Shown one piece after another: positions 663-38,767 of a stretch of 64,000 nt of DNA (position 1 is the first letter of the stretch; every line of letters starts with the position of its first letter). The notes under the pieces are model-generated. The model saw only the letters and a program-made list of their open reading frames with translations. It had not been told where the DNA came from and made no database searches. Source of the stretch: Scenedesmus sp. PABB004 (lineage: Eukaryota); the NCBI GenBank assembly GCA_014905635.1, contig CM026547.1:1984001-2048000 (forward strand), given 5' to 3'. The position numbers and the translations under genes are program-made.

Positions 663-781
663 GCACGCCAGGTGGGTAGGCCGGCGCCAGGCGCGGCGGC
701 AGGAGCGGCGCGCGCGCTGGCGTTGCTGGCACGCAGCCGTCGCGCCCCGGCGCTGCGGCGGCAGCGGCGCGGCTCGAGCCC

Positions 782-938
782 GCGCGACGGCCTCGCGCGC
801 GGTCGGCAGCGGCTCGCGTCCGCGCAGGAGCACGCCGTCGATGTCAAACACGAACGCCGGTGGACGGCTGGAGGTTTGCAGGCCGCGCTGCCGGGCGTGG
901 GCCAGCAGCGCGCCGGCGGCGCCGTGGAGGTGCCGCAT
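782..938 (-). pseudogene. Truncated duplicate of exon 1 of the HAD hydrolase gene
   Basis: MRHLHGAAGALLAHARQRGLQTSSRPPAFVFDIDGVLLRGREPLPTAREAVAR, nearly identical to the peptide at 38511. No downstream exons follow. Confidence 0.85.
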
Positions 939-1164
939 CCGCGGCCTGCCGGCCCCGCTGCCTCACGCGCCGCCGGTTGGAGAGCGTGAGCGTGCTGGCG
1001 TGCCGGAGAGGGGTACAGCGGGGCGGGGGCGCGATCTTGCTGCAACAAGCGCGCCGGCGGCAGCAGCGGCGGGCGGGCGACCCGGCGGCCCGCGCACGCG
1101 GGCGCGGGCAGCAGTCTGGGGGGGCGCGCGAGGTCGGACGAAGAGATGCACCAGGCAAAACGCT

Positions 1165-1238
1165 TGCCCCATACCCGGCTCGAACGGATGACCTTGGCGT
1201 TATTAGCACCACGCTCTAACCAACTGAGCTAATAGGGC
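1165..1238 (-). tRNA. tRNA-Ile (anticodon AAT)
   Basis: Cloverleaf GCCCTAT-TA-GCTC AGTTGGTTA GAGC-G-TGGTG CTAATAA CGCCA-AGGTC-ATCCG TTCGAGC CGGGT-ATGGGGC-A; TTTT terminator just downstream. Confidence 0.97.
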
Positions 1239-1383
1239 GAGACATGCGCAATTCAGGTAATTCATTCATCATATCATACAAACCTCAGAAGGCACTCTTG
1301 ACTTGCATGACGTGTTCTCGCCCATTACCGAAAACCCTGGATGCACGGGAGTAAAATTGAAATCAACTTTAAAACGTTGCTTA

Positions 1384-2600
1384 CGGGGGCGGCGCATCGG
1401 CGAGAACATCCTGGCCGTCCAGCTCCTGCTGCACGCGCTGCCCGCGTCCAGCCGGGCGGCGGCGGCGCTGCTGGACTTCCAAAAGGCCTACGATACAGTG
1501 GATCGCGGCTTCCTCTTTGCCGTGATGCGCGAGATGGGGGTCCCGCCCGATTGCCTGCGCTGGGTCCGGCTGCTCTTGTCGGACACGCGCGCGGTCGCCG
1601 TGGTCAACGGGTTCACGTCGAAGCCCCGCGCGTTCTGCGCGGGCATCCGCCAGGGCTGCCCCCTCTCCCCCCTGTTGTACCTCTTTGCGGGCGAGGCGCT
1701 CCTCCGCTTCCTGCGTGCGCACGACTTTGGCATCACGCTGCCAGGGTCCTCTGCGCTGCTGCCGGGCCCCCGCCTGGTGGCCACGCAGTACGCGGATGAC
1801 ACCCAAGCCTATATTGAGGTGGGCCAGGTCCCCGCCTTCCTGGCGGCCATGGACGACTACGGCGCGGCGTCGGGCCAGCGCCTGAACCGCGCCAAAGCTC
1901 TTGCTCCTCGGCAGCGCCGTCCGGGCGGAGTATGGCGGGCTGCGGCGGCAGCGGCGGGAGCTCCGGCGCGAGCTCGCCGCCGCGGACCACGGCAGCGCGC
2001 GGGCGGCCGTGCGCCGCCGCCTCGACGCGGTCCGCGCGCGCATGGCGCTCCTGCAGCAGCCGCCGCCGCGGCGGCGGATCAGCCGCCGCCGGCGCCGGGT
2101 ACGCCGCCGCAGAGTCAGGAGCTGGCGCGCCCGCCGGCGTGGCGCCGCACGCGGCGGCAGCGGCGGCGCCGGGAGCGCTGGCGGCTGCAGCAACAGCTTG
2201 AGGGCAGCGCCGCCGCGGCGGCCGCCGCGGCCGCCGCGGCGGCCGCTGGGGGCGGCCTCTCGCCGCCGGAGCCCCGTGCTGGCGAAGGCGGCAGCGGCAG
2301 CGACAGCGACAGCGGCGGCAGCGCCTGCAGCGGCGGCACCACCAGCAGCAGCTGGAGCCACGGCAGCGGTCGCGGCGCGGTGCGGCGGTGGCAGCAGCAG
2401 CAGCAACAGCAGCAGCAACAACAGCGGCAAGCGCCGCAGGAACAGGATCTCGGGCCGCTGCCGGCGGCCGAGCCAGCGCCGCCGCGGCCCGCGCCGCGGC
2501 GGCGCCCGACGCCGCGGCCGCGGGAGCCGCAGCCGCTGCCGATGCTTGCCATGGTGAGCTCGGCGCGGGTGCTCGGCGTCATCGTCGGCCGCTCGGAGCG
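1384..2600 (+). mobile_element. L1-clade non-LTR retrotransposon RT fragment, truncated at both ends and frameshifted
   Basis: GRRIGENI, LLDFQKAYDTVDR, GIRQGCPLSPLLY, QYADDT, SGQRLNRAK; thumb-like RVLGV near 2566 after a low-complexity stretch. Confidence 0.9.
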
Positions 2601-5600
2601 CGCCGCCCGGCGGCCGCTCGGGCGCGCCCGGCGGAGCGGCGGCGCGCGGCGCGGGCCCGCGCGAGGGCGGCGCGGCGGCCCCGCACCGCGGCGCGCGCCG
2701 CCGGCGGTGCCCGGCGGGGCTGCGCGCGGCACGGTGCTGCGCGGCAGCGGCGGCCTTCCTCTGCACGTGGGGGACCGCGCGGACGCGTGCCGGGCGCGCC
2801 CGGCGGAGCGGCGGCGCGCGGCGCGGGCCCGCGCGAGGGCGGCGCGGCGGCCCCGCACCGCGGCGCGCGCGCCGGCGGTGCCCGGCGGGGCTGCGCGCGG
2901 CACGGTGCTGCGCGGCAGCGGGGGCCTTCCTCTGCACGTGGGGACCGCGCGGACGCGTGCCGGGCGCGCCCGGCGGAGCGACGGCGCGCGCGCGGGCCCG
3001 CGCGAGGGCGGCGCGGCGGCCCCGCACCGCGGCGCGCGCCGCCGGCGGTGCCCGGCGGGGCTGCGCGCGGCACGGTGCTGCGCGGCAGCGGGGCCTTCCT
3101 CTGCACGTGGGGGACCGCGCGGACGCGTGCCGGGCGCGCCCGGCGGAGCGGCGGCGCGCGGCGCGGGCCCGCGCGAGGGCGGTGCGGCGGCCCCGCACCG
3201 CGGCGCGCGCCGCCGGCGGTGCCCGGCGGGGCTGCGCGCGGCACGGTGCTGCGCGGCAGCGGGGGCCTTCCTCTGCACGTGGGGGACCGCGCGGACGCGT
3301 GCCGGGCGCCCGGCGGAGCGGCGGCGCGCGGCGCGGGCCCGCGCGAGGGCGGCGCGGCGGCCCCGCACCGCGGCGCGCGCCGCCGGCGGTGCCCGGCGGG
3401 GCTGCGCGCGGCACGGTGCTGCGCGGCAGCGGGGGCCTTCCTCTGCACGTGGGGGACCGCGCGGACGCGTGCCGGGCGCGCCCGGCGGAGCGGCGGCGCG
3501 CGGCGCGGGCCCGCGCGAGGGCGGCGCGGCGGCCCCGCACCGCGGCGCGCGCCGCCGGCGGTGCCCGGCGGGGCTGCGCGCGGCACGGTGCTGCGCGGCA
3601 GCGGGGGCCTTCCTCTGCACGTGGGGGACCGCGCGGACGCGTGCCGGGCGCGCCCGGCGGAGCGGCGGCGCGCGGCGCGGGCCCGCGCGAGGGCGGTGCG
3701 GCGGCCCCGCACCGCGGCGCGCGCCGCCGGCGGTGCCCGGCGGGGCTGCGCGCGGCACGGTGCTGCGCGGCAGCGGCGGCCTTCCTCTGCACGTGGGGGA
3801 CCGCGCGGACGCGTGCCGGGCGCGCCCGGCGGAGCGGCGGCGCGCGGCGCGGGCCCGCGCGAGGGCGGCGCGGCGGCCCCGCACCGCGGCGCGCGCCGCC
3901 GGCGGTGCCCGGCGGGGCTGCGCGCGGCACGGTGCTGCGCGGCAGCGGGGGCCTTCCTCTGCACGTGGGGGCGCGGACGCGGACGCGTGCCGGGCGCGCC
4001 CGGCGGAGCGGCGGCGCGCGGCGCGGGCCCGCGCGAGGGCGGCGCGGCGGCCCCGCACCGCGGCGCGCGCCGCCGGCGGTGCCCGGCGGGGCTGCGCGCG
4101 GCACGGTGCTGCGCGGCAGCGGGGGCCTTCCTCTGCACGTGGGGGACCGCGCGGACGCGTGCCGGGCGCGCCCGGCGGAGCGGCGGCGCGCGGCGCGGGC
4201 CCGCGCGAGGGCGGTGCGGCGGCCCCGCACCGCGGCGCGCGCCGCCGGCGGTGCCCGGCGGGGCTGCGCGCGGCACGGTGCTGCGCGGCAGCGGGGGCCT
4301 TCCTCTGCACGTGGGGGACCGCGCGGACGCGTGCCGGCGCGCCCGGCGGAGCGGCGGCGCGCGGCGCGGGCCCGCGCGAGGGCGGCGCGGCGGCCCCGCA
4401 CCGCGGCGCGCGCCGCCGGCGGTGCCCGGCGGGGCTGCGCGCGGCACGGTGCTGCGCGGCAGCGGGGGCCTTCCTCTGCACGTGGGGGACCGCGCGGACG
4501 CGTGCCGGGCGCGCCCGGCGGAGCGGCGGCGCGCGGCGCGGGCCCGCGCGAGGGCGGCGCGGCGGCCCCGCACCGCGGCGCGCGCCGCCGGCGGTGCCGG
4601 CGGGGCTGCGCGCGGCACGGTGCTGCGCGGCAGCGGGGGCCTTCCTCTGCACGTGGGGGACCGCGCGGACGCGTGCCGGGCGCGCCCGGCGGAGCGCGGC
4701 GCGCGGCGCGGCGCGCCCGCGCGAGGCGGCGCGGCGGCCCCGCACCGCGGCGCGCGCCGCCGGCGGTGCCCGGCGGGGCTGCGCGCGGCACGGTGCTGCG
4801 CGGCAGCGGGGGCCTTCCTCTGCACGTGGGGGACCGCGCGGACGCGTGCCGGGCGCGCCCGGCGGAGCGGCGGCGCGCGGCGCGGGCCCGCGCGAGGGCG
4901 GCGCGGCGCCCCGCACCGCGGCGCGCGCCGCCGGCGGTGCCCGGCGGCGGGGCTGCGCGCGGCACGGTGCTGCGCGGCAGCGGGGGCCTTCCTCTGCACG
5001 TGGGGGACCGCGCGGACGCGTGCCGGGCGCGCCCGGCGGAGCGGCGGCGCGCGGCGCGGGCCCGCGCGAGGGCGGCGCGGCGGCCCCGCACCGCGGCGCG
5101 CGCCGCCGGCGGTGCCCGGCGGGGCTGCGCGCGGCACGGTGCTGCGCGGCAGCGGCGGCCTTCCTCTGCACGTGGGGGACCGCGCGGACGCGTGCCGGGC
5201 GCGCCCGGCGGAGCGACGGCGCGCGGCGCGGCCGCGCGCGAGGGCGGCGCGGCGGCCCCGCACCGCGGCGCGCGCCGCCGCGGTGCCCGGCGGGGCTGCG
5301 CGCGGCACGGTGCTGCGCGGCAGCGGGGGCCTTCCTCTGCACGTGGGGGACCGCGCGGACGCGTGCCGGGCGCGCCCGGCGGAGCGGCGGCGCGCGGCGC
5401 GGGCCCGCGCGCGAGGGCGGCGCGGCGGCCCCGCACCGCGCGCGCGCCGCCGCCGGCGGTGCCCGGCGGGGCTGCGCGCGGCACGGTGCTGCGCGGCAGC
5501 GGGGGCCTTCCTCTGCACGTGGGGGACCGCGCGGACGCGTGCCGGGCGCGCCCGGCGGAGCGGCGGCGCGCGGCGCGGGCCCGCGCGAGGGCGGCGCGGC

Positions 5601-6265
5601 GGCCCCGCACCGCGGCGCGCGCCGCCGGCGGTGCCCGGCGGGGCTGCGCGCGGCACGGTGCTGCGCGGCAGCGGGGGCCTTCCTCTGCACGTGGGGGACC
5701 GCGCGGACGCGTGCCGGGCGCGCCCGGCGGAGCGGCGGCGCGCGGCGCGGGCCCGCGCGAGGGCGGCGGCGGCGCCCCGCACCGCGGCGCGCGCCGCCGG
5801 CGGTGCCCGGCGGGGCTGCGCGCGGCACGGTGCTGCGCGGCAGCGGGGGCCTTCCTCTGCACGTGGGGGACCGCGCGGACGCGTGCCGGGCGCGCCCGGC
5901 GGAGCGACGGCGCGCGCGCGGCGCGGGCCGCGCGAGGGCGGCGCGGCGGCCCCGCACCGCGGCGCGCGCCGCCGGCGGTGCCCGGCGGGGCTGCGCGCGG
6001 CACGGTGCTGCGCGGCAGCGGCGGCCTTCCTCTGCACGTGGGGGACCGCGCGGACGCGTGCCGGGCGCGCCCGGCGGAGCGGCGGCGCGCGGCGCGGGCC
6101 CGCGCGAGGGCGGCGCGGCGGCCCCGCACCGCGGCGCGCGCCGCCGGCGGTGCCCGGCGGGGCTGCGCGCGGCACGGTGCTGCGCGGCAGCGGCGGCCTT
6201 CCTCTGCACGTGGGGGACCGCGCGGACGCGTGCCGGGCGCGCCCGGCGGAGCGACGGCGCGCGGC

Positions 6266-6483
6266 ATTGCGGGGCATCACCTGGTCTCCTTGGGCGCCCG
6301 TTGGGCGTTGGCCTCTGGCTGTGCCGTTGGGTGATGTGTGGGCCCCCTCTCGGGGGGCGCCGCGGGGCGCGGTTTTTCACGAGGGGTTGCTGCGCTCTTC
6401 CCGTTGGAGTTTTTTTCAGTGGCTGCCCCTGGGCCTCGGTCCTTGTCTGCGTCACCCATTGTAACAAAAAAAAAAAAAAAAAA
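6266..6483 (+). mobile_element. 5'-truncated LINE family A copy (3'UTR plus poly(A))
   Basis: Ends CCCATTGTAAC(A)n; 13-bp TSD GACGGCGCGCGGC at 6253-6265 and 6484-6496. Confidence 0.95.
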
Positions 6484-9010
6484 GACGGCGCGCGGCGCGG
6501 GCCCGCGCGAGGGCGGCGCGGCGGCCCTGCACCGCGGCGCGCGCCGCCGGCGGTGCCCGGCGGGGCTGCGCGCGGCACGGTGCTGCGCGGCAGCGGGGGC
6601 CTTCCTCTGCACGTGGGGGACCGCGCGGACGCGTGCCGGGCGCGCCCGGCGGAGCGGCGGCGCGCGGCGCGGGCCCGCGCGAGGGCGGCGCGGCGGCCCC
6701 GCACCGCGGCGCGCGCCGCCGGCGGTGCCCGGCGGGGCTGCGCGCGGCACGGTGCTGCGCGGCAGCGGGGGCCTTCCTCTGCACGTGGGGGACCGCGCGG
6801 ACGCGTGCCGGGCGCGCCCGGCGGAGCGGCGGCGCGCGGCGCGGGCCCGCGCGAGGGCGGCGCGGCGGCCCCGCACCGCGGCGCGCGCCGCCGGCGGTGC
6901 CCGGCGGGGCTGCGCGCGGCACGGTGCTGCGCGGCAGCGGGGGCCTTCCTCTGCACGTGGGGGACCGCGCGGACGCGTGCCGGGCGCGCCCGGCGGAGCG
7001 GCGGCGCGCGGCGCGGGCCCGCGCGAGGGCGGCGCGGCGGCCCCGCACCGCGGCGCGCGCCGCCGGCGGTGCCCGGCGGGGCTGCGCGCGGCACGGTGCT
7101 GCGCGGCAGCGGGGGCCTTCCTCTGCACGTGGGGGACCGCGCGGACGCGTGCCGGGCGCGCCCGCGGAGCGGCGGCGCGCGGCGCGGGCCCGCGCGAGGG
7201 CGGCGCGGCGGCCCCGCACCGCGGCGCGCGCCGCCGGCGGTGCCCGGCGGGGCTGCGCGCGGCACGGTGCTGCGCGGCAGCGGGGGCCTTCCTCTGCACG
7301 TGGGGGACCGCGCGGACGCGTGCCGGGCGCGCCCGGCGGAGCGGCGGCGCGCGGCGCGGCCCGCGCGAGGGCGGCGCGGCGGCCCCGCACCGCGGCGCGC
7401 GCCGCCGGCGGTGCCCGGCGGGGCTGCGCGCGGCACGGTGCTGCGCGGCAGCGGGGGCCTTCCTCTGCACGTGGGGGACCGCGCGGACGCGTGCCGGGCG
7501 CGCCCGGCGGAGCGGCGGCGCGCGGCGCGGGCCCGCGCGAGGGCGGCGCGGCGGCCCCGCACCGCGGCGCGCGCCGCCGGCGGTGCCCGGCGGGGCTGCG
7601 CGCGGCACGGTGCTGCGCGGCAGCGGCGGGCCTTCCTCTGCACGTGGGGGACCGCGCGGACGCGTGCCGGGCGCGCCCGGCGGAGCGGCGGCGCGCGGCG
7701 CGGGCCCGCGCGAGGGCGGCGCGGCGGCCCCGCACCGCGGCGCGCGCCGCCGGCGGTGCCCGGCGGGGCTGCGCGCGGCACGGTGCTGCGCGGTGCGGGG
7801 GCCTTCCTCTGCACGTGGGGGACCGCGCGGACGCGTGCCGGGCGCGCCCGGCGGAGCGGCGGCGCGCGGCGCGGGCCCGCGCGAGGGCGGCGCGGCGGCC
7901 CCGCACCGCGGCGCGCGCCGCCGGCGGTGCCCGGCGGGGCTGCGCGCGGCACGGTGCTGCGCGGCAGCGGGGGCCTTCCTCTGCACGTGGGGGACCGCGC
8001 GGACGCGTGCCGGGCGCGCCCGGCGGAGCGGCGGCGCGCGGCGCGGGCCCGCGCGAGGGCGGCGCGGCGGCCCCGCACCGCGGCGCGCGCCGCCGGCGGT
8101 GCCCGGCGGGGCTGCGCGCGGCACGGTGCTGCGCGGCAGCGGCGGCCTTCCTCTGCACGTGGGGGACCGCGCGGACGCGTGCCGGGCGCGCCGGCGGAGC
8201 GGCGGCGCGCGGCGCGGGCCCGCGCGAGGGCGGCGCGGCGGCCCCGCACCGCGGCGCGCGCCGCCGGCGGTGCCCGCGGGGCTGCGCGCGGCACGGTGCT
8301 GCGCGGCAGCGGCGGCCTTCCTCTGCACGTGGGGGACCGCGCGGACGCGTGCCGGGCGCGCCCGGCGGAGCGGCGGCGCGCGGCGCGGGCCCGCGCGAGG
8401 GCGGCGCGGCGGCCCCGCACCGCGGCGCGCGCCGCCGGCGGTGCCCGGCGGGGCTGCGCGCGGCACGGTGCTGCGCGGCAGCGGCGGCCTTCCTCTGCAC
8501 GTGGGGGACCGCGCGGACGCGTGCCGGGCGCGCCCGGCGGAGCGGCGGCGCGCGGCGCGGGCCCGCGCGAGGGCGGCGCGGCGGCCCCGCACCGCGGCGC
8601 GCGCCGCCGGCGGTGCCCGGCGGGGCTGCGCGCGGCACGGTGCTGCGCGGCAGCGGCGGCCTTCCTCTGCACGTGGGGGACCGCGCGGACGCGTGCCGGG
8701 CGCGCCCGGCGGAGCGGCGGCGCGCGGCGCGGGCCCGCGCGAGGGCGGCGCGGCGGCCCCGCACCGCGGCGCGCGCCGCCGGCGGTGCCCGGCGGGGCTG
8801 CGCGCGGCACGGTGCTGCGCGGCAGCGGCGGCCTTCCTCTGCACGTGGGGGACCGCGCGGACGCGTGCCGGGCGCGCCCGGCGGAGCGGCGGCGCGCGGC
8901 GCGGGCCCGCGCGAGGGCGGCGCGGCGGCCCCGCACCCGCGGCGCGCGCCGCCGGCGGTGCCCGGCGGGGCTGCGCGCGGCACGGTGCTGCGCGGCAGCG
9001 GGGGCCTTCC

Positions 9011-9094
9011 CGTTGGAGTTTTTTTCAGTGGGCTGCCCCTGGGCCTCGGTCCTTGTTTGGTCACCCATTGTAACAAAAAAAAAAAAAAAAAAAA
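9011..9094 (+). mobile_element. 5'-truncated LINE family A copy
   Basis: Same 3' end plus poly(A); TSD GCGGGGGCCTTCC at 8998-9010 and 9095-9107; CTTCC microhomology at the 5' junction. Confidence 0.95.
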
Positions 9095-11153
9095 GCGGGG
9101 GCCTTCCTCTGCACGTGGGGGACCGCGCGGACGCGTGCCGGGCGCGCCCGGCGGAGCGACGGCGCGCGGCGCGGGCCCGCGCGAGGGCGGCGCGGCGGCC
9201 CCGCACCGCGGCGCGCGCCGCCGGCGGTGCCCGGCGGGGCTGCGCGCGGCACGGTGCTGCGCGGCAGCGGGGGCCTTCCTCTGCACGTGGGGGACCGCGC
9301 GGACGCGTGCCGGGCGCGCCCGGCGGAGCGGCGGCGCGCGGCGCGGGCCCGCGCGAGGGCGGCGCGGCGGCCCCGCACCGCGGCGCGCGCCGCCGGCGGT
9401 GCCCGGCGGGGCTGCGCGCGGCACGGTGCTGCGCGGCAGCGGGGGCCTTCCTCTGCACGTGGGGGACCGCGCGGACGCGTGCCGGGCGCGCCCGGCGGAG
9501 CGGCGGCGCGCGCGCGGGCCCGCGCGAGGGCGGCGCGGCGGCCCCGCACCGCGGCGCGCGCCGCGGCGGTGCCCGGCGGGGCTGCGCGCGGCACGGTGCT
9601 GCGCGGCAGCGGGGGCCTTCCTCTGCACGTGGGGGACCGCGCGGACGCGTGCCGGGCGCGCCCGGCGGAGCGGCGGCGCGCGGCGCGGGCCGCGCGAGAG
9701 GGCGGCGCGGCGGCCCCGCACCGCGGCGCGCGCCGCCGGCGGTGCCCGGCGGGGCTGCGCGCGGCACGGTGCTGCGCGGCAGCGGCGGCCTTCCTCTGCA
9801 CGTGGGGGACCGCGCGGACGCGTGCCGGGCGCGCCCGGCGGAGCGGCGGCGCGCGGCGCGGGCCGCACGAGGGCGGCGCGGCGGCCCCGCACCGCGGCGC
9901 GCGCCGCCGGCGGTGCCCGGCGGGGCTGCGCGCGGCACGGTGCTGCGCGGCAGCGGGGGCCTTCCTCTGCACGTGGGGGACCGCGCGGACGCGTGCCGGG
10001 CGCGCCCGGCGGAGCGACGGCGCGCGGCGCGGGCCCGCGCGAGGGCTGCGCGGCGGCCCCGCACCGCGGCGCGCGCCGCCGGCGGTGCCCGGCGGGGCTG
10101 CGCGCGGCACGGTGCTGCGCGGCAGCGGGGGCCTTCCTCTGCACGTGGGGGACCGCGCGGACGCGTGCCGGGCGCGCCCGGCGGAGCGGCGGCGCGCGGC
10201 GCGGGCCCGCGCGAGGGCGGCGCGGCGGCCCCGCACCGCGGCGCGCGCCGCCGCGGTGCCCGGCGGGGCTGCGCGCGGCACGGTGCTGCGCGGCAGCGGC
10301 GGCCTTCCTCTGCACGTGGGGGACCGCGCGGACGCGTGCCGGGCGCGCCCGGCGGAGCGGCGGCGCGCGGCGCGGGCCGCGCGCGAGGGCGGCGCGCGGC
10401 CCCGCACCGCGCGCGCGCCGCCGGCGGTGCCCGGCGGGGCTGCGCGCGGCACGGTGCTGCGCGCAGCGGCGCGGCCTTCCTCTGCACGTGGGGGACCGCG
10501 CGGACGCGTGCCGGGCGCGCCCGGCGGAGCGACGCGGCGCGCGGCGCGCCCGCGCGCGAGGGCGGCGCGGCGGCCCCGCACCGCGGCGCGCGCCGCCGGC
10601 GGTGCCCGGCGGGGCTGCGCGCGGCACGGTGCTGCGCGGCAGCGGGGGCCTTCCTCTGCACGTGGGGGACCGCGCGGACGCGTGCCGGGCGCGCCCGGCG
10701 GAGCGGCGGCGCGCGGCGCGGGCCCGCGCGAGGGCGGCGCGGCGGCCCCGCACCGCGGCGCGCGCCGCCGCGGTGCCCGGCGGGGCTGCGCGCGGCACGG
10801 TGCTGCGCGGCAGCGGCGGCCTTCCTCTGCACGTGGGGGACCGCGCGGACGCGTGCCGGGCGCGCCCGGCGGAGCGACGGCGCGCGGCGCGGGCCCGCGC
10901 GAGGGCGGCGCGGCGGCCCCGCACCGCGGCGCGCGCCGCCGGCGGTGCCCGGCGGGGCTGCGCGCGGCACGGTGCTGCGCGGCAGCGGGGGCCTTCCTCT
11001 GCACGTGGGGGACCGCGCGGACGCGTGCCGGGCGCGCCCGGCGGAGCGGCGGCGCGCGGCGCGCGGCCCGCGCGAGCGGCGGGGCGCGGCGCGCCGGCCC
11101 CGCACCGCGGCGCGCGCCGCCGGCGGTGCCCGGCGGGGCTGCGCGCGGCACGG

Positions 11154-11226: not shown

Positions 11227-11233
11227 CGCGCGG

Positions 11234-14831: not shown

Positions 14832-14851
14832 CTCCCACGCGGACGCAACAC

Positions 14852-28271: not shown

Positions 28272-28634
28272 TTTTTTTTTTTTTTTTTTTTTTTACAATG
28301 GGTTTTTTTTTTTTTTTTTTTTTTTTTTGTTACAATGGGTGACCAAACAAGGACCGAGGCCCAGGGGCAGCCCACTGAAAAAAACTCCAACGGGAAGAGC
28401 GCAGCAACCCCTCGTGAAAAACCGCGCCCCGGCGCCCCCCGAGAGGGGGCACCCACATCACCCAACGGCACAGCCAGAGGCCAACGCCCAACGGGCGCCC
28501 AAGGAGACCAGGTGATGCCCCGCAATCAAAGGGGCAGCAGCAGATCAGGCCGCACACCCCCCTTCCGGTGCGGCGAGCCGCACCGGGCATCGGTGCAGCG
28601 AGGTGCACCGGCTCCAAGCCTCCGCGCAGAGATC
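28272..28634 (-). mobile_element. Stacked LINE family A 3' ends (poly(T)-ACAATGGG remnant plus a ~330-bp truncated copy)
   Basis: Two poly(T) tracts separated by ACAATGGG, then the family A 3'UTR up to GAGATC. Confidence 0.9.
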
Positions 28635-29189
28635 TTTTTTATTTTTTTTATTTTTTTTTATTTTTTTGTTACAATGGGTGACCAGACAAGGACCGAGGCC
28701 CAGGGGCAGCCCATTGAAAAAAAGCTCCAACGGGAAGAGCGCAGCAACCCCTCGTGAAAAACCGCGCCCCGGCGCCCCCCGAGAGGGGGCACACACATCA
28801 CCCAACGGCACAGCCAGAGGCCAACGCCCAACGGGCGCCCAAGGAGACCAGGTGATGCCCCGCAATCAAAGGGGCAGCAGCAGATCAGGCCGCACACCCC
28901 CCTTCCGGTGCGGCGAGCCGCACCGGGCATCGGTGCAGCGAGGTGCACCGGCTCCAAGCCTCCCCGCAGAGATCACGCGCAAACGCCATCCACGCCGGCG
29001 GCGGCAGGGGCCGGCCTCAGCGGCATCAGCCCCCGCGCCGCGCGACGACCGACACGCAGACACCAGCCCGCGGCACGGGCGGACACCGCCCAACCTTGCA
29101 CGCTGCAGAAGAGGCGCGACACGCAGCCAGCCGGGGTCGCAGCAAGCCCGGCCGCGGACCCCCCCGGCCCTGCAGCTAGCCGCCGCGCT

Positions 29190-29220
<31 letters not shown>

Positions 29221-32200
29221 GGGGTCCTGCGCCGCCGGCGGGGCCAGCGCCGGCGCCGCCGGCAGCGCCGGCACGCCGCTGCGGTGAGCCGGAACTCCAT
29301 TGTGAAGCGGCCCCCGTGCTGGCCCGTGCGCGCGATGACCCCTCGGTGGCACCACCGGCGTTCGAAATCTGCCCGAGTGAGCTCCTTGCCGGAGCCCGAC
29401 AGCCAGGGGCGCGGCACGCCCGCCAGCGCGCGCACGTCCATCGCTGCCTTGCGCCAGTCCAGCACGACTGCGTCGCGCACCGAGTACACAAAGATGCGAA
29501 TCGCCGCCACAGGCGCGTGCCCGGGCTGGCCGCCGCCGTGCCGCGCGCTCGCGGCGAGCAGGGCGCGCAGCAGCAGCAGGCGGAGGTGCGTCCAGAGCTG
29601 CTGCAGCTCCGGCGCGACGCCCGACCTGGCAAAGTCGTCCGCCAGCATCACCCTGGGCGGGGGCGGCGCGCGCGGAAGCCCGGCTGCAGCCGCGCCCAGA
29701 GGTGAGCAAACCACTGCAGCACCGCCGCCGCCACGGGGCATCCGCCGAGGACGTGGCGAGCGTCTCCAGCGGCGGCTGCTGCTGCGCGCGGCAGAGCGGG
29801 TGCGGGCACGCCAGCTCCGCCAGCTCCGGCGCCGCGCGCTGGTAAGAGAAGACCCTGTCGCCGCTGACGCGCACCCCGCCGTGCAGCAGGCTCCAGCCAA
29901 AGTGTCGCAGGGCGCGCGGCATGCGCGCCTGCTGCGCGCGCGCGTAGCAGGCGGCCCAGGCGGGCGGCTCCGCGCGCTCGCCGGCGCGCGGCGGCGCAGT
30001 CGCACCAGTGAGCGGGTCGACGAGGTCGTTGGCCGCCGGCTCCTGAACCAGGGTCCTGCGCTGCTCCAGCTGCTGCTCCCGCCGCTGCTCATGCTCCTCG
30101 CGCCGCGCCGCGGCGGCAGCGGCCGCCGCCGGCCCGACGCGCTCCATGACGTGGCGCCGCGGGGGCGAGACTTTCTGCCACGCCGGCAGCCCAGGCTCCG
30201 GGTCTGGCGTCTCGGCTCGCTGCCGCTCCGCCCAGCTGCGCTTCTGGCCCGCCTCCCGCCGCGCGATGGCGCTGGCCGGGCATGCCTGGCCGTAGCCGGC
30301 GCGCCAGAGGCCCGGCACGCAGCCAACGCCGGGCGTCCAGCCCCCTGCCGGCGTGACCTCGCGCGCGCAGCGCAGCTGCAGCAGCCGCAGGGTCGCGCCG
30401 CGCACCGTAAACTGCATGACCGTGGCCGCGTGCCCGAGCCCCCACACGGAGGGGTCGACGCGGACGTCAGGCCAGAAGCCCACGAGGAACCATCGCCGCG
30501 CCCTGCTGTGCAGCTCCGGCTGCTCCGCCGGCGCCGCTGCCCCGGGCGCTCCGGCCGCCGCGCGCTGCGCGCCCGCCGCTGGCCGCGGCGCCTGCGCCGC
30601 GTCCACCACGCAGCAGTCCTCCCACCCCCCGCCGCGACTATCTCGGGCGGGGGCTCGGCGGTGCGGAGCCTGCTGTCAGGCCCCACCTCGAAGAAGCTCG
30701 CCGCTGCCGCGCCCAGCGCCCACCGCCGTACCCACCGCACGGCGGGCGGCGGCGGCGGCGGCTGCGGCGGCTGCTCCACCGGCAGCGCCGCCAGCGGCTG
30801 CTGGGGCTGCTGCACCACGCCGCCGCCGGCGACGGCGGCGCCGCGCTGGGCCGCAGCGCCTGCCAACCCGGCGCGCTCGGCCCGCTGCGCGCGAGCGCCT
30901 GCTGCCACTCACCCGGCATGACGACGCCGTCGGCGGCCGGCCGCCACGGCAGGCGCGGCGCCGCCTGCCCGAGGCTGTCGCTGCGCAGCTCCGCGGGCAG
31001 GTCCTCGAGCGACGCGATGCGCGCGCCGCCCAGGGCCGCGCCGACGCTGCAGTTGCCCACCAGGGCCTCCACCCTGATCTGCTCCACGGTCATGCTGCCG
31101 TGGGGGATCACCCGGTGCACGCCGAGAGCCGCAAACGCGCAGGCGATCGCGCCCCACCGCCACGGCAGCTGCGCCCGCAGCTCCAGCGCGGTGCCCTGCA
31201 CGAGGGCGGCGGTGCCCCGGCCAGGCAGCGCGCGCGCGAAGCGCGCCGCCGCGGGTGGCTTCCAGGCCGCCCCCACCGGGTGCAGCAGCCTGGCGGCCGT
31301 CTTGGCCAGCATTGCCGTGGTGAAGGCCGCGACGTCGACCTGCGCCTCGCCGCCCATGCTCGCGGGCAGGCACGCGATGGCCGCCCGCGGAACCTGCCTG
31401 ATAATGCGGTTGTCGCTCTCGCGGATGCACCAGTTGCCGACGATGTAGGCGGTGACGCGCCGCTGGATGAGGCGCAGGAGGTCGGCCGGCACCGGCACAA
31501 ACTGCGCGTGCCAGCCCACGCAGGCCGCGAGCACCTGGCGCGCAACGTGCCGGCGGCCCGGGCGCGTGAGCGCGTACCGCGACCAGTGCGCGATGCGGCA
31601 GGTGATGGTGCGCAGCCGCTCGCGGTAAAGCTGCGCCGCGTGCCGCCCGACGCCGGTGGCAGAGAGCAGCACGCCCAGGTGCCTGATCGGCGCCTGCTCT
31701 GTGTCCGGGAAGCACACGCCCGTGCTGCACTCGACCAGCTGCCCGCTGCCATCCGGCTGCAGCTGCAGCGCCGGGTGGTCGCCCAGCAGCATGCCCTTGC
31801 ACTTGGCCAGGTTGAGCTGCGCGCCGCTGGCCAGGCAGAACGGCGCGACGGCGCCGTCCAGCAGCCGCTTGGCGCTCTCCACTGACGCTGCGTGCAGGGT
31901 GGTGTCGTCTGCGTGCTGGTGGCAGCAGGGCGCCGGCCCTGCGCCGCCGGGCAGCTGCAGGCTGGCAAAACCGGGCTGCCGCTGCACGCGCCGGCACATG
32001 GCCGCCAGCGGCTGCGCCGCCAGCACATACAGCAGCGGGCTGAGCGGGCTGCCCTGCGCGCAGCCCGACGCCACGCTGAACTCGCGGCTGACATGGCCGC
32101 CGTTGAAGGCGACGCGCGCCCGCGTGCCTGCGAGCAGCAGGCGGACCCAGCGCGTGGTTGCGTCGGGCAGGCCCATGCGCGCGAGGCACCTGAACAGCCA

Positions 32201-33547
32201 GCCGCGGTCGAGGCGGTCGTAGGCCTTGGCAAAGTCGAGGAACAGCAGGCAGCCCGGCGCGCGCGTCTCGCGCGCGTGGTCGATCGCCTCCAGGTGCATG
32301 AGCACGTTGTCGGCGATGTCCCGGCCCGGCACAAACGCCGTCTGCGTGCAGTCGACGATGGAGCCGAGCGCGGGCGCGAGCCGCTGCACGATGGCCTTGG
32401 CTGCGATCTTGGTGTCTGTGTTGAGCAGCGTGATGGGGCGGTAGCTGCTGACCGCCTCGCGCGGCTGGCCGCCCTTGTGGATCAGCGTGATGAGCCCGAG
32501 CCGCTGCGTCGCCGCGAGCTGCGGCGCGCCGGCTGCCTGGTTGAGGTAGTGATAGTTGAAGGCTTGGACGAGCGGCTCGCCCAGCACCTCCCACAGGGCC
32601 GCGTAGGCCTCGCAGGTGAGGCCGTCGCTGCCCGGCGCCGCGCCGCGCGGTAGGCTGGCCAGCGCCGCCGTCGCCTCGGCGAACGTGAGCAGCCCCTCGG
32701 GGTCCTGCCCGCGGCAGGCCCGCTGCTCGGTTGCCGAGAGCTGCCGGTCCAGCGCGTCCAGCATGCAGTCCTGCTGTTGCTGGTCGGTCGGCCGGACGCC
32801 GAACATGCCGCCCGGCACGTCCGCGTCGAAGAAGTCGGCGATGATGCGGCCGCCCTCCTGGATGCCTGCCCTGGAGGTAAGCGGCACGGCGGGCTGGCCC
32901 GGGCGGGCGAGCGCGTGAATTGGCTGCGCGCCGCCCGGCGCGCGGCCCAGGCGGTGGAACCAGCGGCTGGGCCCCTCGCCGCACTCGTCCCATACCGCCT
33001 CCAGAGCGTCCGCCTGCTGCCGCCGCTGCGCCGCCTCCGCCGCGGCGAGCGCCCGCTCGCAGCTGGTGGAGCTCCTGCTGCTCCTGCTGCCGCATCTCCG
33101 CACGCAGCTCCGCCGCGATGCGCCGCACACTCTGTTTGAGCTGCTCAAACAGCTCGCCCGGGTCCAGCCCTGCGTCCCGCAGCTGCCGCGCGGCAGCTGC
33201 TACACGGTCGCGGAGCTCGGCCCGGCGGCTGGCGCAGGCGAGCAGGTCGTTGGGGAACGTCCAGCGTCGCCGCCCAGCCAGCGGCTGTCCCGGCCGCTGC
33301 AGGCTGACGCTGACCGGCCTGTGGTCGCTGTGGCACAGCGGGTGGTGCGCCGCACCGACCAGCCAGTGGTCGGCGAGCTCCTGCGCCACAAACCACGCGT
33401 CGATGCGGCCACCGTGCACCGCCCCGTCGCGCCGCTGGTAGTGCGTGGGCTGCGCGCGGAGCTGCGGCGCCACGCGCAGCAGCGCGTCGACGACGCCCGC
33501 CGCCGCGTTGGCGCGGGCGAGGTCCGCGCCGCCGTGGCATCTGCCAG
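28635..33547 (-). mobile_element. 4.9-kb L1-clade (Zepp-like) LINE family A copy, 5'-truncated within the APE endonuclease, with several frameshifts
   Basis: APE motifs GRIDAWF and HSDHRPV. RT motifs APGSDGL, YRPITLLNTDTKI, QTAFVPGRDIADN, FLDFAKAYDR, GCAQGSPLSPLLY, QHADDT, RHLGV. C-terminal CCHC-like motif, same 3'UTR and poly(A). Confidence 0.93.
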
Positions 33548-33601
33548 GCCCAACGGGCGCCCAAGGAGACCAGGTGATGCCCCGCAATCAAAGGGGCAGC
33601 A
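33548..33601 (-). mobile_element. 54-bp fragment of the LINE family A 3'UTR fused to the 5' end of the long copy
   Basis: GCCCAACGGGCGCCCAAGGAGACC...GGGGCAGCA matches ~28486-28539. Confidence 0.85.
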
Positions 33602-33925
33602 TAAAGATAAAGATAAAGATAGTTACACCACAGGCTCGCGCCCATTGGTCCCGCGCCCCTTAAGGACGGTGTCCCGCATCTTCCAGATGTCCATCACATA
33701 ATCTGCCACAGAGTGAACAGCAAGCTGATCCTGCAGCAGGTCACCAAGCAAATAACGCCGAGCCTGCTCCAGTGCTGCACACCGACTCGCCGCGCCGGTA
33801 ACGGCAGCCCGAGGGGCCGCCGCACCAGCAGAGACGCTGCTGACGCTGACCGCCGCGCTGACATCATCAGCCCGAGGGACCAATGGGCGCGAGCCTGTGG
33901 TGTAACTATCTTTATCTTTATCTTT
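33601..33925. mobile_element. Two LINE family B (RTEX-like) 3' fragments joined with tails pointing outward
   Basis: 33601-33878 (minus strand) matches 36646-36908. 33876-33925 (plus strand) is the inverted last ~50 bp. Both end TGTAACT(ATCTTT)n. Confidence 0.8.
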
Positions 33926-35237
33926 CCATCAGCGCGCGGGCATCGACTACCACGAGGTCTTTGCGCCCGTCATCAAATACAGCTCCTTTCGCGCGCTCTG
34001 CGCGCTCGCCGCTGCCAACGACTGGGAACTGTACCACGTGGACATCAAGACGGCCTTCCTCAACGGCGACGTTGAAGAAGAGTTGTGGATGCAGCAGCCC
34101 CCTGGCTTTGAGCAGGGGCCGCCCGGCTTTGCCTGCAAACTGCGGCGCTCACTCTATGGCCTGAAGCAGGCGCCGCGCGCCTGGAACCAGCGCCTGCACG
34201 CAGAACTGCTGGCGATGGGCTTCACCCAGTCGGCAGCCGACCCTGCGGTCTACTTCATCCAACACGACAGCTCTTTCCTCATCTTGCTGGTGTACGTGGA
34301 CGACCTGCTGATCGCCACGCCGCGCACCGACCTGGTGCAGCGCTTCAACGCGCGCCTGCTCGCAGCGTTCGAGGGCCGCTGCCTCGGCCCCGTGACCTGC
34401 TTCCTGGGCATCCTGATCGAGCGCGACCGCGCGCGCCGCACCCTCAAGATCAGCCAGGCGCGGCTGATCAGCGCCATCCTGGAGAAGTTTGAGCTGAGCG
34501 ACGCGAAGCCCCGCGTGCTGCCGCTCAGCCCGGCGGCGCGCCTGAGCACCGCCGACGGCGACGCGCTCGACACCGCCAAGTTCAACTACTCTGCCCTGAT
34601 TGGCAGCATCATGTACCTGGCCATCTCCACGCGGCCGGACATCGCCTACACCGTGGGCTTGCTCTCCCGCTTCATGGCCAAGCCCACCACCGCGCACTGG
34701 GAGGCGGCGCGCAGCACGCTGCGCTACCTCTCCGGCACCGCAGATGTGGGCATCACCTACGCCGGCCCCGATCAGCACCTGGTCGGCTTCACCGACTCAG
34801 ACTACGCGGCGTGCATCGACACGCGCCGCTCGACCTGCGGGTAACTCTTCACGCTGGCCGGCGGGGCCATCTCCTGGTCAAGCAAGCGCCAGCCCACCGT
34901 CGCGGCCTCCACCACCGAGGCCGAGTATCTGGCGGCTGCAGCCGCGGTCAAGGAGGCGCTCTGGCTGCGCAACCTGCTGCGCGAGCTGGGGCTGCACATC
35001 AACACGGTGCACATCCACGCCGACAACCAGTCCGCGATCAAGCTCCTGCTCAACCCGATGAGCTCCTCGCGCTCGAAGCACATCGACGTCGCCTACCACT
35101 TTGCGCACGAGCGCGTCACGCGTGGCGAGGTCAACTTTAGCTACCTGCCCACCGGCGAGATGACCGCCGACGTGCTCACCAAGGCGCTGCCCGCGGCCAA
35201 GCTGCAGGTGTGCAGGGCGGGCATGGGGCTGGGCTGA
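33924..35237 (+). pseudogene. Second copia family RT-RNase H remnant with a premature stop
   Basis: FHQRAGIDYHEVFAPV, DIKTAFL, SLYGLKQAPRAW, YVDD; TAA at 34842-34844 where Tyr is expected; KHIDV, ADVLTK. Confidence 0.92.
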
Positions 35238-35410
35238 GCTGCTGCGCAGCCGCCGCATGTGTGGCATCTGAGCGGCTGCGCGCGAGCCGTGGGAGTTGAT
35301 AAAATACACAACAACATGCACCCCTCACCAACGTTAGTGCTACGCGTTGGGAGCTGCATTCTTGCGCATGCATGGCACCAACAGCCGCAACGGAGCAGTG
35401 CACGTGGGAG

Positions 35411-35757
35411 TGTTGTAGTTCAGCACTCTAGCTGATTTTTGCCCTGCTCCCTTGCACCTGGCTGCAGCCTGCTACAGCCGGCTGTAGCTTGCTACACCTG
35501 GCATCAGCCCCCGCGCACTGCTGCGCGCGCGCTGTCTCGCGAACAGCTCAACAGCCCGTGTGCTGTTGGAGCGCGCCGTGGCGCGCCGTGGCGCGCTGTA
35601 GCGCGCTGTAGCGCGCTGTAGCTGCTGTATGTAGCCCGTGGCGCTACAGCCAGCGCGCGCGCGCCCTACAAATAGGCGCCCCACTGCTTGGCGCTTGTAA
35701 CGGAGTCACGCCACACACCAACGGCCTCGCCACTGAGCAGCGAGCAGCAGCGCAACA
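35411..35757 (+). repeat. 3' LTR of the second copia element (unpaired in this window)
   Basis: TGTTG...CAACA termini, preceded by CGTGGGAG as in the first copia; contains TGTAA. Confidence 0.7.
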
Positions 35758-35950
35758 GTTGTTGGTTACACGGCGGGGCCCGGTACGCTCCGGGCGGTTG
35801 AACCACCGCCGCTTGCCGGGCCTGCTGCAGCCGCTGCGCGCGCTCGCGCTCGGCCACCGCCGCTTGTCGCTGCTGCTGCGCCTCGGGGGGAGGCCCGGTT
35901 GTTGTTTGTTGTTGTTGGTTACACGGCGGGGCCCGGTACACTCCGGGCGC
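35758..35950 (-). mobile_element. Two 3' ends of a third non-LTR family (TGTAAC plus (CAA)n tail)
   Basis: GTTGTTGGTTACACGGCGGGGCCCGGTAC(G/A)CTCCGGGCG at ~35758-35797 and ~35911-35949. Confidence 0.5.
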
Positions 35951-36371
35951 GTGAGCGTTCCACATCGGATCGCCTGGCGGGCCTGACCAACTCCCTCCCC
36001 GCCACCGCACGTGTCTGTGTCCTCCAAGTGCGACCAACCGAGCAGCCCGCAAGCGCGATCGCATGCTGGCAAGCCGGCGCAGGGCGTGTAGCGAGCATGG
36101 CGCGGCCCAGGCGCGCGCAACTCACCAGCAAACCCACATGCATGCCGCCCTCTGGTCTCGACCGCGCGCCGGAACGTGGCACAAGGCAGCAGAACCGCTG
36201 CGAGGGCCAACCCCCGCGCGCCCCCCGCCCCGCCGCCGCCCCCGCGACCGACGCCGCCTTCTCCCCCCACCCCGGCCACACGCACACCCAGCCCGGCGGT
36301 GCCCCGGGACTCCACACACACCGGCCTACAGAACTGGCAGCGGGGCAGCACCAAACACACACGCCCGCACA

Positions 36372-36507
36372 CACACAAAGAGCCTCACGCACCGGCCGGC
36401 GTGAGCGGCGCCGGGCACGGTGCAGAGGAAGGGGGTGCTGCGCCGCAAGCAGCGCAACACACCGTGGCGGGGTCGCGCAGCGCGCGACAAAACCCGCGGG
36501 GCAGGCC
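36372..36507. repeat. 136-bp direct repeat, copy 1 (partner 37887-38022)
   Basis: Near-identical by eye (one substitution seen). Confidence 0.9.
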
Positions 36508-36629
36508 CAGGTCGACGCCGCCGCCGCCTGAAGGTCATGCAGCCGGAGCGCATGCGCTCACGGCCGCCTGTCGCTGCCGCCGCGCCTCGGGGGAAGGCGC
36601 GGCATGCAGCCTGCCGAAGAGGCGCTGAC

Positions 36630-37600
36630 CAAGAAAAGAAAAGAAAAGATAGTTACACCACAGGCTCGCGCCCATTGGTCCCGCGCCCCTTAAGGACGGT
36701 GTCCCGCATCTTCCAGATGTCCATCACATAATCTGCCACAAAGTGAACAGCAAGCTGATCCTGCATCAGGTCACCAAGCAGATAACGCCGAGCCTGCTCC
36801 AGTGCTGCACACCGACTCGCCGCGCCGGTAACGGCAGCCCGAGGGGCCGCCGCACCAGCAGAGACGCTGCTGACGCTGACCGCCGCGCTGACATCATCAG
36901 CCCGAGGGGCCGCCGTATCAGCCGTGACGCCGCTATCGCTGATGCTGACCGCCGCGCCTGCGTCAGCAGCCCGAGGGGCCGCCGCGCTAGCCACGACGCC
37001 GGGGTCGCTGACGCTGCCGCTGCCGCCGCCGCCAACTCCAGCCTCCAGCTCCTGGCTGCCGCTAGCCGCCATCTCAACACCAGCCGCACGCAGGTGCGCA
37101 GCCAGCGCGCCAGCATGCGCGCCCCCGCCGCTGGCACGGAGGTCCGCAAGCAGCGCAACGAGGCGTGCAGGGCGGCCGGGCGCGCCGCACTCAAAGAGAA
37201 AGTGCGCGGCCGATTCGGGCGCGCGCGCAGCGCAGCAGGGGCAGCGCTCTCGCTCCGCCTGCTGCGCGATCGACTCCCCCCGGCGCGCGTGGCTGTGGGC
37301 AGCGCGCAGCGGGAGGCACTCCATGCGCAGGCGCATGAGCAGCTCCGCCGGCCGGCCGCGCCGCGGGCCGCCGGGGCTGCAGAGCCAGCCCAGGTAATCC
37401 CGGGCGCACGGCACGCCGGCGCGGCGCGTGAAGGAGCGAGTAGAGAAGACGCCGCTGCCAAAGGCCTCCCGGTAGCGCCGCGCCACCGAGCCGCGGCCGG
37501 CGGCGGCCTCCCAGGCGCCATCGATGTGGTCGACCAACGGCCTCGGCGCCCTCCACGCGCCTGGGTGGCGCAGCCTCCTGCGCGTCCGCCTCCGTCTTGG
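36630..37600 (-). mobile_element. LINE family B (RTEX-like) 5'-truncated copy; 5' boundary uncertain
   Basis: ORF2 C-terminus MRLRMECLPL...ERCPCC...ESAAHFLFEC (CCHC finger); stop overlaps TGTAA; (TCTTT)n tail. Confidence 0.75.
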
Positions 37601-37886
37601 TCTCGAGGCTGTCACTGCTGGGGATGGCCAGGCCGCCGGCGGGGCCCCACCACCACGGCCGCTGCGACGCTGCCGCTGCAGCCGCCGCCGCCGCCGCTGC
37701 CGGCGACGCTGTCCCTGTCGCTGCCGCTGCCGCCGCCGCCGCCGCCGGCGACGCTGCCGCCGCCGCCGCTGCCGGCCCAGCCAGGCGGACCTACGCTCCA
37801 CACGCCTCAGCCGCGGTCGTGCGCCGGTGTGCCGGGCGGCGGCGCGGCCCCGCCGGCTTCGCGGCCCCGCCGGCGCCGCCGCACGC

Positions 37887-38022
37887 CACACAAAGAGCCT
37901 CTCGCACCGGCCGGCGTGAGCGGCGCCGGGCACGGTGCAGAGGAAGGGGGTGCTGCGCCGCAAGCAGCGCAACACACCGTGGCGGGGTCGCGCAGCGCGC
38001 GACAAAACCCGCGGGGCAGGCC
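37887..38022. repeat. 136-bp direct repeat, copy 2
   Basis: Matches 36372-36507. Confidence 0.9.
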
Positions 38023-38062
38023 AGGTTGTTATTATTATTATTATTGTTGGTTGTTGTTGTTG

Positions 38063-38767
38063 GTTTTAAATTTGATTTCAATTTTACTCCCGTGCATCCA
38101 GGGTTTTCGGCAATGGGCGAGAACACGTCCTGCAAGTCAAGAGTGCCTTCTGAGGTTTGCATTATATGATGAATGAATTACCTGAATTGCGCATGTCTCG
38201 CCCTATTAGCTCAGTTGGTTAGAGCGTGGTGCTAATAACGCCAAGGTCATCCGTTCGAGCCGGGTATGGGGCAAGCGTTTTGCCTGGTGCATCTCTTCGT
38301 CCGACCTCGCGCGCCCCCCCAGACTGCTGCCCGCGCCCCGCCCGACGCGTGCGCGGGCCGCCGGGTCGCCCGCCCGCCGCTGCTGCCGCCGGCGCGCGCT
38401 TGTTGCAGCAAGATCGCGCCCCCGCCCCGCTGTACCCCTCTCCGGCACGCCAGGCACGCTCACGCTCTCCAACCGGCGGCGCGTGAGGCAGCGGGGCCGG
38501 CAGGCCGCGGATGCGGCACCTCCACGGCGCCGCCGGTGCGCTGCTGGCCCACGCCCGGCAGCGCGGCCTGCACACCTCCAGTCGTCCACCGGCGTTCGTG
38601 TTTGACATCGACGGCGTGCTCCTGCGCGGACGCGAGCCGCTGCCGACCGCGCGCGAGGCCGTCGCGCGGGTGCGAGCCGCGCCGCTGCCGCCGCAGCGCC
38701 GGGGCGGGCGGCTGCATGCCAGCAACGCCAGCCCGCGCGCCGCTGCTGCCGCCGCTGCGCCTGGCGC
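38063..38767 (+). repeat. Right arm of the inverted duplication (attached to the intact HAD gene)
   Basis: Reverse complement of 684-1375. Confidence 0.95.
38200..38273 (+). tRNA. tRNA-Ile (anticodon AAT)
   Basis: Same sequence as 1165-1238; TTTT at 38278-38281. Confidence 0.97.

Follow-up and report, generated by a model that had tools for sequence, protein, structure and literature searches.

Green-algal centromeres have been described from no more than a handful of species, in which they are mainly built from transposons. In Coccomyxa subellipsoidea and Chlamydomonas reinhardtii, clusters of the L1-type long interspersed nuclear elements (LINEs) Zepp and ZeppL, respectively, represent putative or CENH3-associated centromeres. 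The centromeres of Chromochloris zofingiensis and Chlorella are rich in Copia or in Copia plus L1, and in two Chlorella species they have been validated with CENH3. Mean sizes of the putative centromeres have been reported as 23 kb for Coccomyxa (Zepp L1), 27 kb for Chromochloris (Copia), 52 kb for Chlorella SLA-04 (Copia, L1 and RTE-X) and 200 kb for Chlamydomonas (ZeppL) (PMC11005252). Zepp clusters arise by nested insertion, which leaves arrays of 5′-truncated 3′ ends (PMC8226300). Here we describe a gene-free repeat island in Scenedesmus sp. PABB004, located within a 64-kb stretch of contig CM026547.1 (hereafter the window, to which all coordinates refer), and consider it as a candidate for the centromere of its chromosome. 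A preliminary description of the same stretch had put forward a centromere that combines a satellite, Zepp-like LINEs and boundaries formed by genes transcribed by RNA polymerase III (Pol III).

Judged by analogy with the described algal systems, the island most likely represents a regional centromere or the core of pericentromeric heterochromatin. To the narrower proposition, that it is the centromere of its chromosome, we assign a probability of about 0.5 on the strength of its sequence features. The inverted repeat that frames the island, together with the tRNA-Ile genes that it carries, is probably an incidental by-product of a local rearrangement.

A satellite-based repeat island between coding sequences

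The island extends from position 1376 to 38062 (36,687 bp) and has coding DNA on either side. None of its interior open reading frames (ORFs) scanned against Pfam matched a host-gene family, in agreement with the preliminary description, which had seen no recognizable host gene in this interval. The window thus contains a gene-free, repeat-rich tract of tens of kilobases (36.7 kb) lying between ordinary genes. This tract is composed of about 18.1 kb of satellite, at least six copies of a LINE that we call LINE-A, one young Copia element and older retroelement debris.

The GC content in 2-kb bins across the window ranges from 67 to 90%. The PABB004 assembly as a whole comprises 39.8 Mb in 77 contigs, with an N50 of 1.3 Mb, 78.5% GC and 1.31% repeats (PMC12571836, Table 1). 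By simple arithmetic, this repeat fraction corresponds to about 0.52 Mb genome-wide and to about 64 kb expected per 4.85-Mb contig; the island alone amounts to 37 kb. Because only 1.31% of the genome is repetitive, islands of about 37 kb must be rare in it.

The island has no telomere repeats and is flanked by coding DNA, indicating that it is not subtelomeric. It is not rDNA either, in that a whole-window Rfam run at gathering thresholds reported no rRNA; the same run listed nothing at all, tRNAs included. The fast filters of Rfam seem to lose the 57-bit tRNA-Ile described below in sequence of so GC-rich a composition, as a targeted run does find this tRNA.

The backbone of the island is one continuous, single-orientation satellite array that has since been invaded. 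The satellite domain, delineated with TRF and an anchor motif, has a 172-bp unit and spans positions 2619–28272 (plus strand). Interrupted by retroelements, it falls into arrays at 2619–6265, 6486–9010, 9095–11154, 13114–14477 and 19777–28272, all on the plus strand, which together contain about 105 monomers with a GC content of 89–90%. The monomers are 97–99.4% identical to each other, the most uniform stretch being 19777–28272, and their comparison revealed no higher-order period. The anchor motif has 103 plus-strand matches with a modal spacing of 172, and its two minus-strand matches both lie in a 149-bp repeat. The gaps between the arrays are clean insertions. LINE-A has entered the satellite array repeatedly by target-primed reverse transcription.

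Translations of the satellite in both strands retrieved nothing from the protein database at E ≤ 1e-5 in the range of 378–1204 amino acids, which is no evidence either way. A lax blastn search of the satellite against the window returned GC-rich noise alone, at 58–66%. The 149-bp unit occurs twice, at 36365–36512 and 37879–38026, in copies that are 97–99% alike, and it carries the 13-nt core of the satellite monomer (CCTTCCTCTGCAC) in reversed orientation. An origin of the satellite from a LINE 5′ unit was considered and set aside: the alignment scores obtained with the 149-bp repeat (25–27) lie within or near the maxima for shuffled sequences (22–29), leaving a common origin unproven.

LINE-A copies in the island

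Judged by its reverse transcriptase, LINE-A is an L1-type LINE. Among its copies in the island, four have target-site duplications (TSDs), one is nested and three are arranged tail to head. A 3′ fragment with an A-tail occupies positions 6266–6485 (plus strand, 13-bp TSD), and another 3′ fragment, of about 60 bp and also followed by an A-tail, is found at 9011–9094 (plus strand, 13-bp TSD). The nested pair at 11155–13113 is of mixed orientation. It consists of a short minus-strand 3′ end, flanked in the satellite by a 12-bp TSD and split by a 1.87-kb plus-strand copy (11225–13097) that has a 16-bp TSD of its own. At 28273–33590, three minus-strand copies follow each other tail to head, namely a stub of about 9 bp with its tail, a copy of about 330 bp and a copy of about 5 kb. 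At both of these last two loci, insertion into existing copies has produced tandem 5′-truncated 3′ ends. The landing sites of LINE-A comprise the satellite, other LINE-A copies and the positions behind each other's tails. The 25 kb of genic DNA that follow the island on its right contain no LINE-A copy, as opposed to at least six in the island. The preliminary description had called these LINEs Zepp-like, and as far as behavior is concerned, the designation is borne out by copies that are 5′-truncated, nested and arranged tail to head.

The copy of about 5 kb includes what reads as the end of an endonuclease domain, one frameshift, a reverse transcriptase (RT) domain (RVT_1, E = 1.2e-28) and a long C-terminal region. 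It corresponds to a protein annotated as 'Transposon TX1' (P0049), which is encoded here at 97–100% identity per segment. The RT of P0048, a full-length LINE-A homolog, is nearest to that of human LINE-1 ORF2p among solved structures (E = 2.8e-19). No Pfam endonuclease domain was found in P0048; the endonuclease motifs GDFN and SDHxPV can be read by eye in LINE-A, and some of its relatives contain PF03372. Relatives of LINE-A are annotated in Scenedesmus sp. PABB004 at 84–100% identity. LINE-A proteins form five clusters with a total of 28 members. The longest contigs listed for these clusters measure 4.85 Mb (P0049), 1.27 Mb, 796 kb, 784 kb and 87 kb, and the contigs so listed do not give a reliable number of loci. 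The matches in the LINE-A searches include no protein labelled as Zepp or ZeppL, the nearest named one from an outside species being L1 ORF2 of Coccomyxa sp. Obi (38–41%).

Two further details concern the insertions themselves. At the 5′ end of the long LINE-A copy (33546–33607) there are about 55 bp that are otherwise found about 218 bp from the LINE-A 3′ end, and this is the same place at which the copy at 6266 is truncated. The structure at 33546–33607 suggests template switching during insertion. In addition, the minus-strand insertions at 11154 and 28272, which are independent, join the satellite at one and the same phase of its monomer (…GCGCGCGGCACGG followed directly by the T-tail), and two plus-strand insertions use phases different from those of the minus-strand pair.

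Copia and older retroelements

The satellite also contains a full-length Ty1/Copia element of 5.3 kb (14478–19776, minus strand). Its long terminal repeats (LTRs; approximately 14478–14832 and 19421–19776) are 357 bp long and 100% identical, and the element is flanked by a 5-bp TSD (CGGCC). Pfam domains Retrotran_gag_2, rve and RVT_2 follow each other on the minus strand in the gag–integrase–RT order of Copia. The insertion of this element is very recent, and the retroelement pieces at both edges of the island are older. Within 14852–18509, the gag–integrase and RT parts are in two overlapping frames, which amounts to one frameshift, either real or caused by an assembly indel, in spite of the identity of the two LTRs.

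The left edge is formed by an RT fragment of a different LINE, LINE-B (1376–2615, plus strand; RVT_1, E = 3.9e-14), which is truncated at both ends and shares 39% amino-acid identity with the LINE-A RT. At 1900–2550 its frame is split, between two RT motifs, by about 650 bp of GC-rich low-complexity sequence of the CAG/GCG type. On the right, the LINE-A copies are followed by 4.5 kb of debris, which begins with short inverted 3′-end fragments with microsatellite tails (33591–33930), an old Copia RT fragment (33906–35238, plus strand) and an unclassified stretch of about 1.4 kb (35239–36634). The last element, at 36635–38062 (minus strand), probably represents the 3′ portion of yet another LINE, the third, and ends in a (CTTTT)n tail at 36635; it has a CCHC motif and a zf-RVT match below threshold (E = 0.17), and the assignment is tentative. 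A 36-bp TTA/TTG microsatellite adjoins the right arm of the inverted repeat.

Comparison with known algal centromeres

A centromere is plausible because both the size of the island and its L1-plus-Copia content match those of known green-algal centromeres. The 36.7 kb fall inside the published range of 23–52 kb and are near the ~23 kb of Coccomyxa (PMC11005252). LINE-A shares with Zepp and ZeppL its L1 type, the insertion of 5′-truncated copies into and behind each other, and the formation of a gene-free cluster made mostly of 3′ ends, as these clusters are characterized in PMC8226300. The likeness is one of insertion behavior; half of the island is 172-bp satellite and LINE-A makes up about a fifth of it, unlike in Zepp and ZeppL clusters. 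With the centromeres of Chromochloris and Chlorella, the island has in common an extent of tens of kilobases, a richness in transposable elements (TEs) and the presence of both Copia and L1 (PMC11005252). It differs from them in that it has one intact Copia and one old fragment, with the satellite dominating. The island would resemble the TE-rich 20–50-kb centromeres of Coccomyxa, Chromochloris and Chlorella, from which its additional satellite would set it apart. It is credible that we are dealing with a general kind that is already known, the TE-rich regional centromere, of which the satellite backbone is the unusual feature.

Several observations weigh against this interpretation. To begin with, nothing in the window is centromere-specific. 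A satellite of 90% GC would be unusual for a centromere. Moreover, the ratio of observed to expected CpG across the whole window is 1.03–1.30 in genes, satellite and transposons alike; as CpG is depleted nowhere, the island bears no deamination footprint of heavy methylation. Finally, in Auxenochlorella, a green alga with few repeats, short AT-rich regions are the apparent candidate centromeres (PMC12636532).

The first and the last of these points also speak for the strongest alternative, in which the island is ordinary non-centromeric heterochromatin, the satellite being a safe harbor for retroelements, and the centromere lies elsewhere, maybe in a short AT-rich sequence as in Auxenochlorella. 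A build-up of LINE and Copia elements is to be expected in any gene-free satellite if selection acts against genic insertions, and indeed none of the at least six LINE-A copies is genic. Against it stands the repeat content of PABB004, which at 1.31%, as given in the table cited above, permits few islands of this size. The match in size and L1-plus-Copia content to known algal centromeres (PMC11005252) also speaks against ordinary heterochromatin, and so does the tail-to-head clustering of LINE-A, which is the arrangement described for centromeric Zepp (PMC8226300). We regard this explanation as a serious competitor, although a less probable one than the centromere.

If the island is indeed a centromere, it would combine satellite and L1 in a genome that, at 78.5% GC, is among the most GC-rich known from eukaryotes, and would widen the known range of centromere composition. 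It would also provide a data point on whether Zepp-like LINEs mark centromeres generally in Chlorophyta, a question that PMC8226300 calls for testing. In practical terms, it would offer a start for artificial chromosomes in a production alga.

The inverted repeat and its tRNA-Ile genes

The island is bounded on both sides by the arms of an inverted duplication. Positions 684–1375 match 38767–38063 with 95.9% identity over 706 alignment columns, which confirms the ~700-bp inverted duplication with the same tRNA-Ile(AAT) gene in each arm noted in the preliminary description. The left arm is 692 bp and the right arm 705 bp long, and the alignment shows that they differ by 14 substitutions and six indel events. 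The inner ends of both arms stop at the identical base, so that each tRNA gene has exactly 137 bp of upstream sequence between itself and the repeat block. The 17-mer at this inner edge has no further occurrence in the window.

The tRNA-Ile genes, both detected by ARAGORN, are located at 1165–1238 (minus strand) and 38200–38273 (plus strand) and are transcribed away from the island. The left copy scores 57.1 bits with Infernal (RF00005) against a gathering score of 29, and the right copy is identical to it by alignment. They are intact, with A and B boxes and a T4 terminator; a T4 run follows both copies, the one on the right being the TTTT at 38279–38282. ARAGORN made four tRNA calls in the window, of which we judge these two to be real. 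The call for tRNA-Ser (CGA) at 744–833 lies in the GC-rich copy of a protein-coding exon and was not seen by Infernal at E ≤ 1. The call for tRNA-Ala (CGC) at 38616–38705, outside this Infernal scan, was judged false as the mirror copy of 744–833. Both look like false positives typical of a 78% GC genome.

The exon in question belongs to a gene for a HAD-superfamily hydrolase (38511–40282, plus strand), identified by Pfam (Hydrolase_6/Hydrolase_like) and by tblastx exon matches to relatives at two metagenomic loci (L001 and L002). The right arm (38063–38767, plus strand) is continuous with this intact gene: the ATG (38511) and the first exon are within the arm, which ends in intron 1. The left arm (684–1375, minus strand) consists of a truncated copy of the HAD 5′ region (promoter, exon 1 with its ATG at 936–938, and partial intron 1) and of the tRNA-Ile gene with its AT-rich upstream 137 bp. 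Since it is the right arm that continues into the intact HAD gene, the left arm is the truncated inverted copy of the tRNA-Ile gene and the HAD 5′ end. The arms are, in other words, ordinary single-copy genic DNA and not centromere-type repeats.

The left flank of the duplication is visible for 683 bp. It contains a single coding-like exon at 330–662 (plus strand), identified as an ORF and interpreted as the last exon of a host gene with the stop codon at 660–662. Its GC content at the three codon positions (0.84/0.52/0.94) is like that of the Kelch gene farther to the right; no significant Pfam family was found in it. The exon ends 22 bp before the arm. In the preliminary description, ordinary genes resume just outside the repeat; this needs correction, as on the left the visible flank offers this one coding-like exon, and on the right the HAD gene starts inside the arm.

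We propose that the 0.7-kb arms are a segmental duplication of ordinary DNA that runs from the tRNA-Ile gene through the HAD promoter and exon 1 into intron 1. They probably go back to a single rearrangement. This may have been an inversion of the block in which one break was staggered, or else inverted duplicative repair; both would yield this layout. The tRNA genes would then be at the edges because they were carried in the duplicated piece, and partial identity of the arms would since have been preserved through gene conversion between them, through selection acting on tRNA and promoter, or through both. The staggered-break inversion model for inverted duplications at breakpoints has been described in Drosophila. 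As at such breakpoints, a unique segment is present here once per block end in opposite orientation, with one copy continuous with the HAD gene; unlike there, the inner break of the island falls exactly at a LINE junction.

Support for a rearrangement also comes from a second inverted-duplication system in the same window, which implies that short inverted duplicates of 5′ gene ends are a recurrent feature of the PABB004 genome. Located 6 kb from the inverted repeat of the island, it brackets about 9 kb of ordinary genes, including the Kelch and VTT genes. In one of its pairs, 44072–44492, where a RING-finger gene has its promoter, start codon (ATG) and first exons, matches 54572–54145 in inverted orientation at 93%. 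In the other, 47742–48364 matches 53993–53368, also inverted, at 89%, just upstream of the Kelch gene.

Two findings weigh against a pure rearrangement scar. First, the inner break lies at exactly the same base as the LINE-B junction, which the staggered-break model does not predict. Second, all 14 substitutions are in 684–912 and 1275–1375, that is, in 329 bp of the arm, and the remaining 363 bp form a substitution-free core, which begins 36 bp ahead of the tRNA and takes in the first 26 bp of the HAD coding sequence. Under random placement of substitutions the probability of such a core is 0.00044. Because the substitutions are so non-uniform (P ~ 4e-4), something, either selection or conversion, acts on both arms. 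Three indels, of 1, 2 and 8 bp, do lie inside the core; they are either real or due to errors of the consensus in such GC-rich DNA. As to the inner edge itself, it is in the AT-rich region upstream of the tRNA, at a TTTAAAA-type site, which we take to resemble the targets of L1 endonucleases, a lead only.

Two other origins of the repeat were examined and discarded. The repeat is not the remnant of a large palindrome, as the satellite has a single orientation and the inverted matches farther inside stem from LINE-A or Copia copies that are independent of each other. Derivation of the left arm as a 5′-transduction retrocopy is not supported either, as LINE-B lacks a 3′ end, an A-tail and a TSD. 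Metagenomes scanned with HAD exons 1–2 yielded the two loci named above (58% and 76% identity, GC content of 45–65%). They have the HAD gene alone in common with the window, with no tRNA and no neighboring synteny, and are too distant to reveal the ancestral arrangement.

A Pol III boundary or an incidental bracket

The arms of fission-yeast centromeres consist of kilobases of centromere-specific repeats and contain several tRNA genes. The island is similar to the centromeres of Schizosaccharomyces in that an inverted repeat flanks a central domain and tRNA genes mark the transition. It is different in that its arms are 0.7 kb of unique genic DNA, each with one tRNA and a protein-gene exon, lying outside the repeats. 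By analogy, a barrier role of the tRNA genes is possible, and tRNA-gene barriers are established in yeasts (PMC13578239; PMC6538654).

A centromere bounded by outward-facing Pol III genes in a fission-yeast-like inverted repeat, with the tRNAs selected as barriers, would account for tRNA genes that are identical, intact and placed precisely at both edges, 137 bp from the repeats, and for their inclusion in the substitution-free core. The core, however, extends past the tRNA for another 237 bp, as far as the HAD start codon, and enters the coding sequence. As it is far wider than the tRNA, gene conversion or selection on the promoter plus tRNA fits at least as well as selection for a barrier. 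The identity of the tRNA genes carries little weight by itself, as zero substitutions in 74 bp have a chance of about 0.2 at 2% divergence. Furthermore, there is one tRNA per side rather than a cluster, and a similar inverted duplication brackets ordinary genes nearby. The preliminary description had noted that the tRNAs and their terminators are unchanged amid diverged flanks; the tRNAs are identical indeed, but the unchanged stretch is the whole core and not the tRNA and terminator alone. Together with the genic nature of the arms, this weakens the case for a Pol III boundary architecture, and we consider such a boundary unlikely. Even more improbable, in our estimate, is the composite in which a working centromere on 90% GC satellite and Zepp-like L1 has its chromatin held in by a tRNA-Ile pair that conversion or selection preserves.

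Literature searches that linked tRNA genes of green algae to centromeres, to barriers or to inverted repeats gave no report of tRNA-bracketed algal centromeres. A term search of the Chlamydomonas CENH3 preprint gave no mention of tRNA or boundaries, and the Scenedesmus obliquus telomere-to-telomere preprint mentions the centromere solely in the legend of a supplementary figure. Term counts in the main texts of the other Scenedesmaceae genome papers retrieved revealed no mention of centromeres. According to a recent review, plants have so far yielded no description of Pol III barriers (PMC13578239). Should this be a working centromere with such a barrier, the green lineage would gain its first example both of a chromatin barrier formed by Pol III genes and of a centromere with the inverted-repeat layout of fission yeast. 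Only recurrence at other islands would give the tRNA/inverted-repeat bracket significance.

The least probable explanation, a long-read assembly artefact in the inverted tRNA/HAD copy or in the placement of the block, could draw on the 1-, 2- and 8-bp indels in an otherwise identical core as possible consensus errors, but fold-back artefacts are usually perfect and terminal, whereas here 14 substitutions separate the arms, unique sequence lies at the outer junction of either arm, the satellite of the interior runs in one orientation and forms no palindrome, and P0049, encoded here, is listed on a 4.85-Mb contig.

Other features of the window

The Kelch gene in the right part of the window has its best named relatives in Chromochloris (58%) and Monoraphidium. 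A tandem repeat with units of 30 and 147 bp occupies positions 47135–47852 and reads as FG-type peptide repeats (AFGA...). It is possibly part of a nucleoporin-like gene, and the second inverted duplication takes in the end of the repeat.

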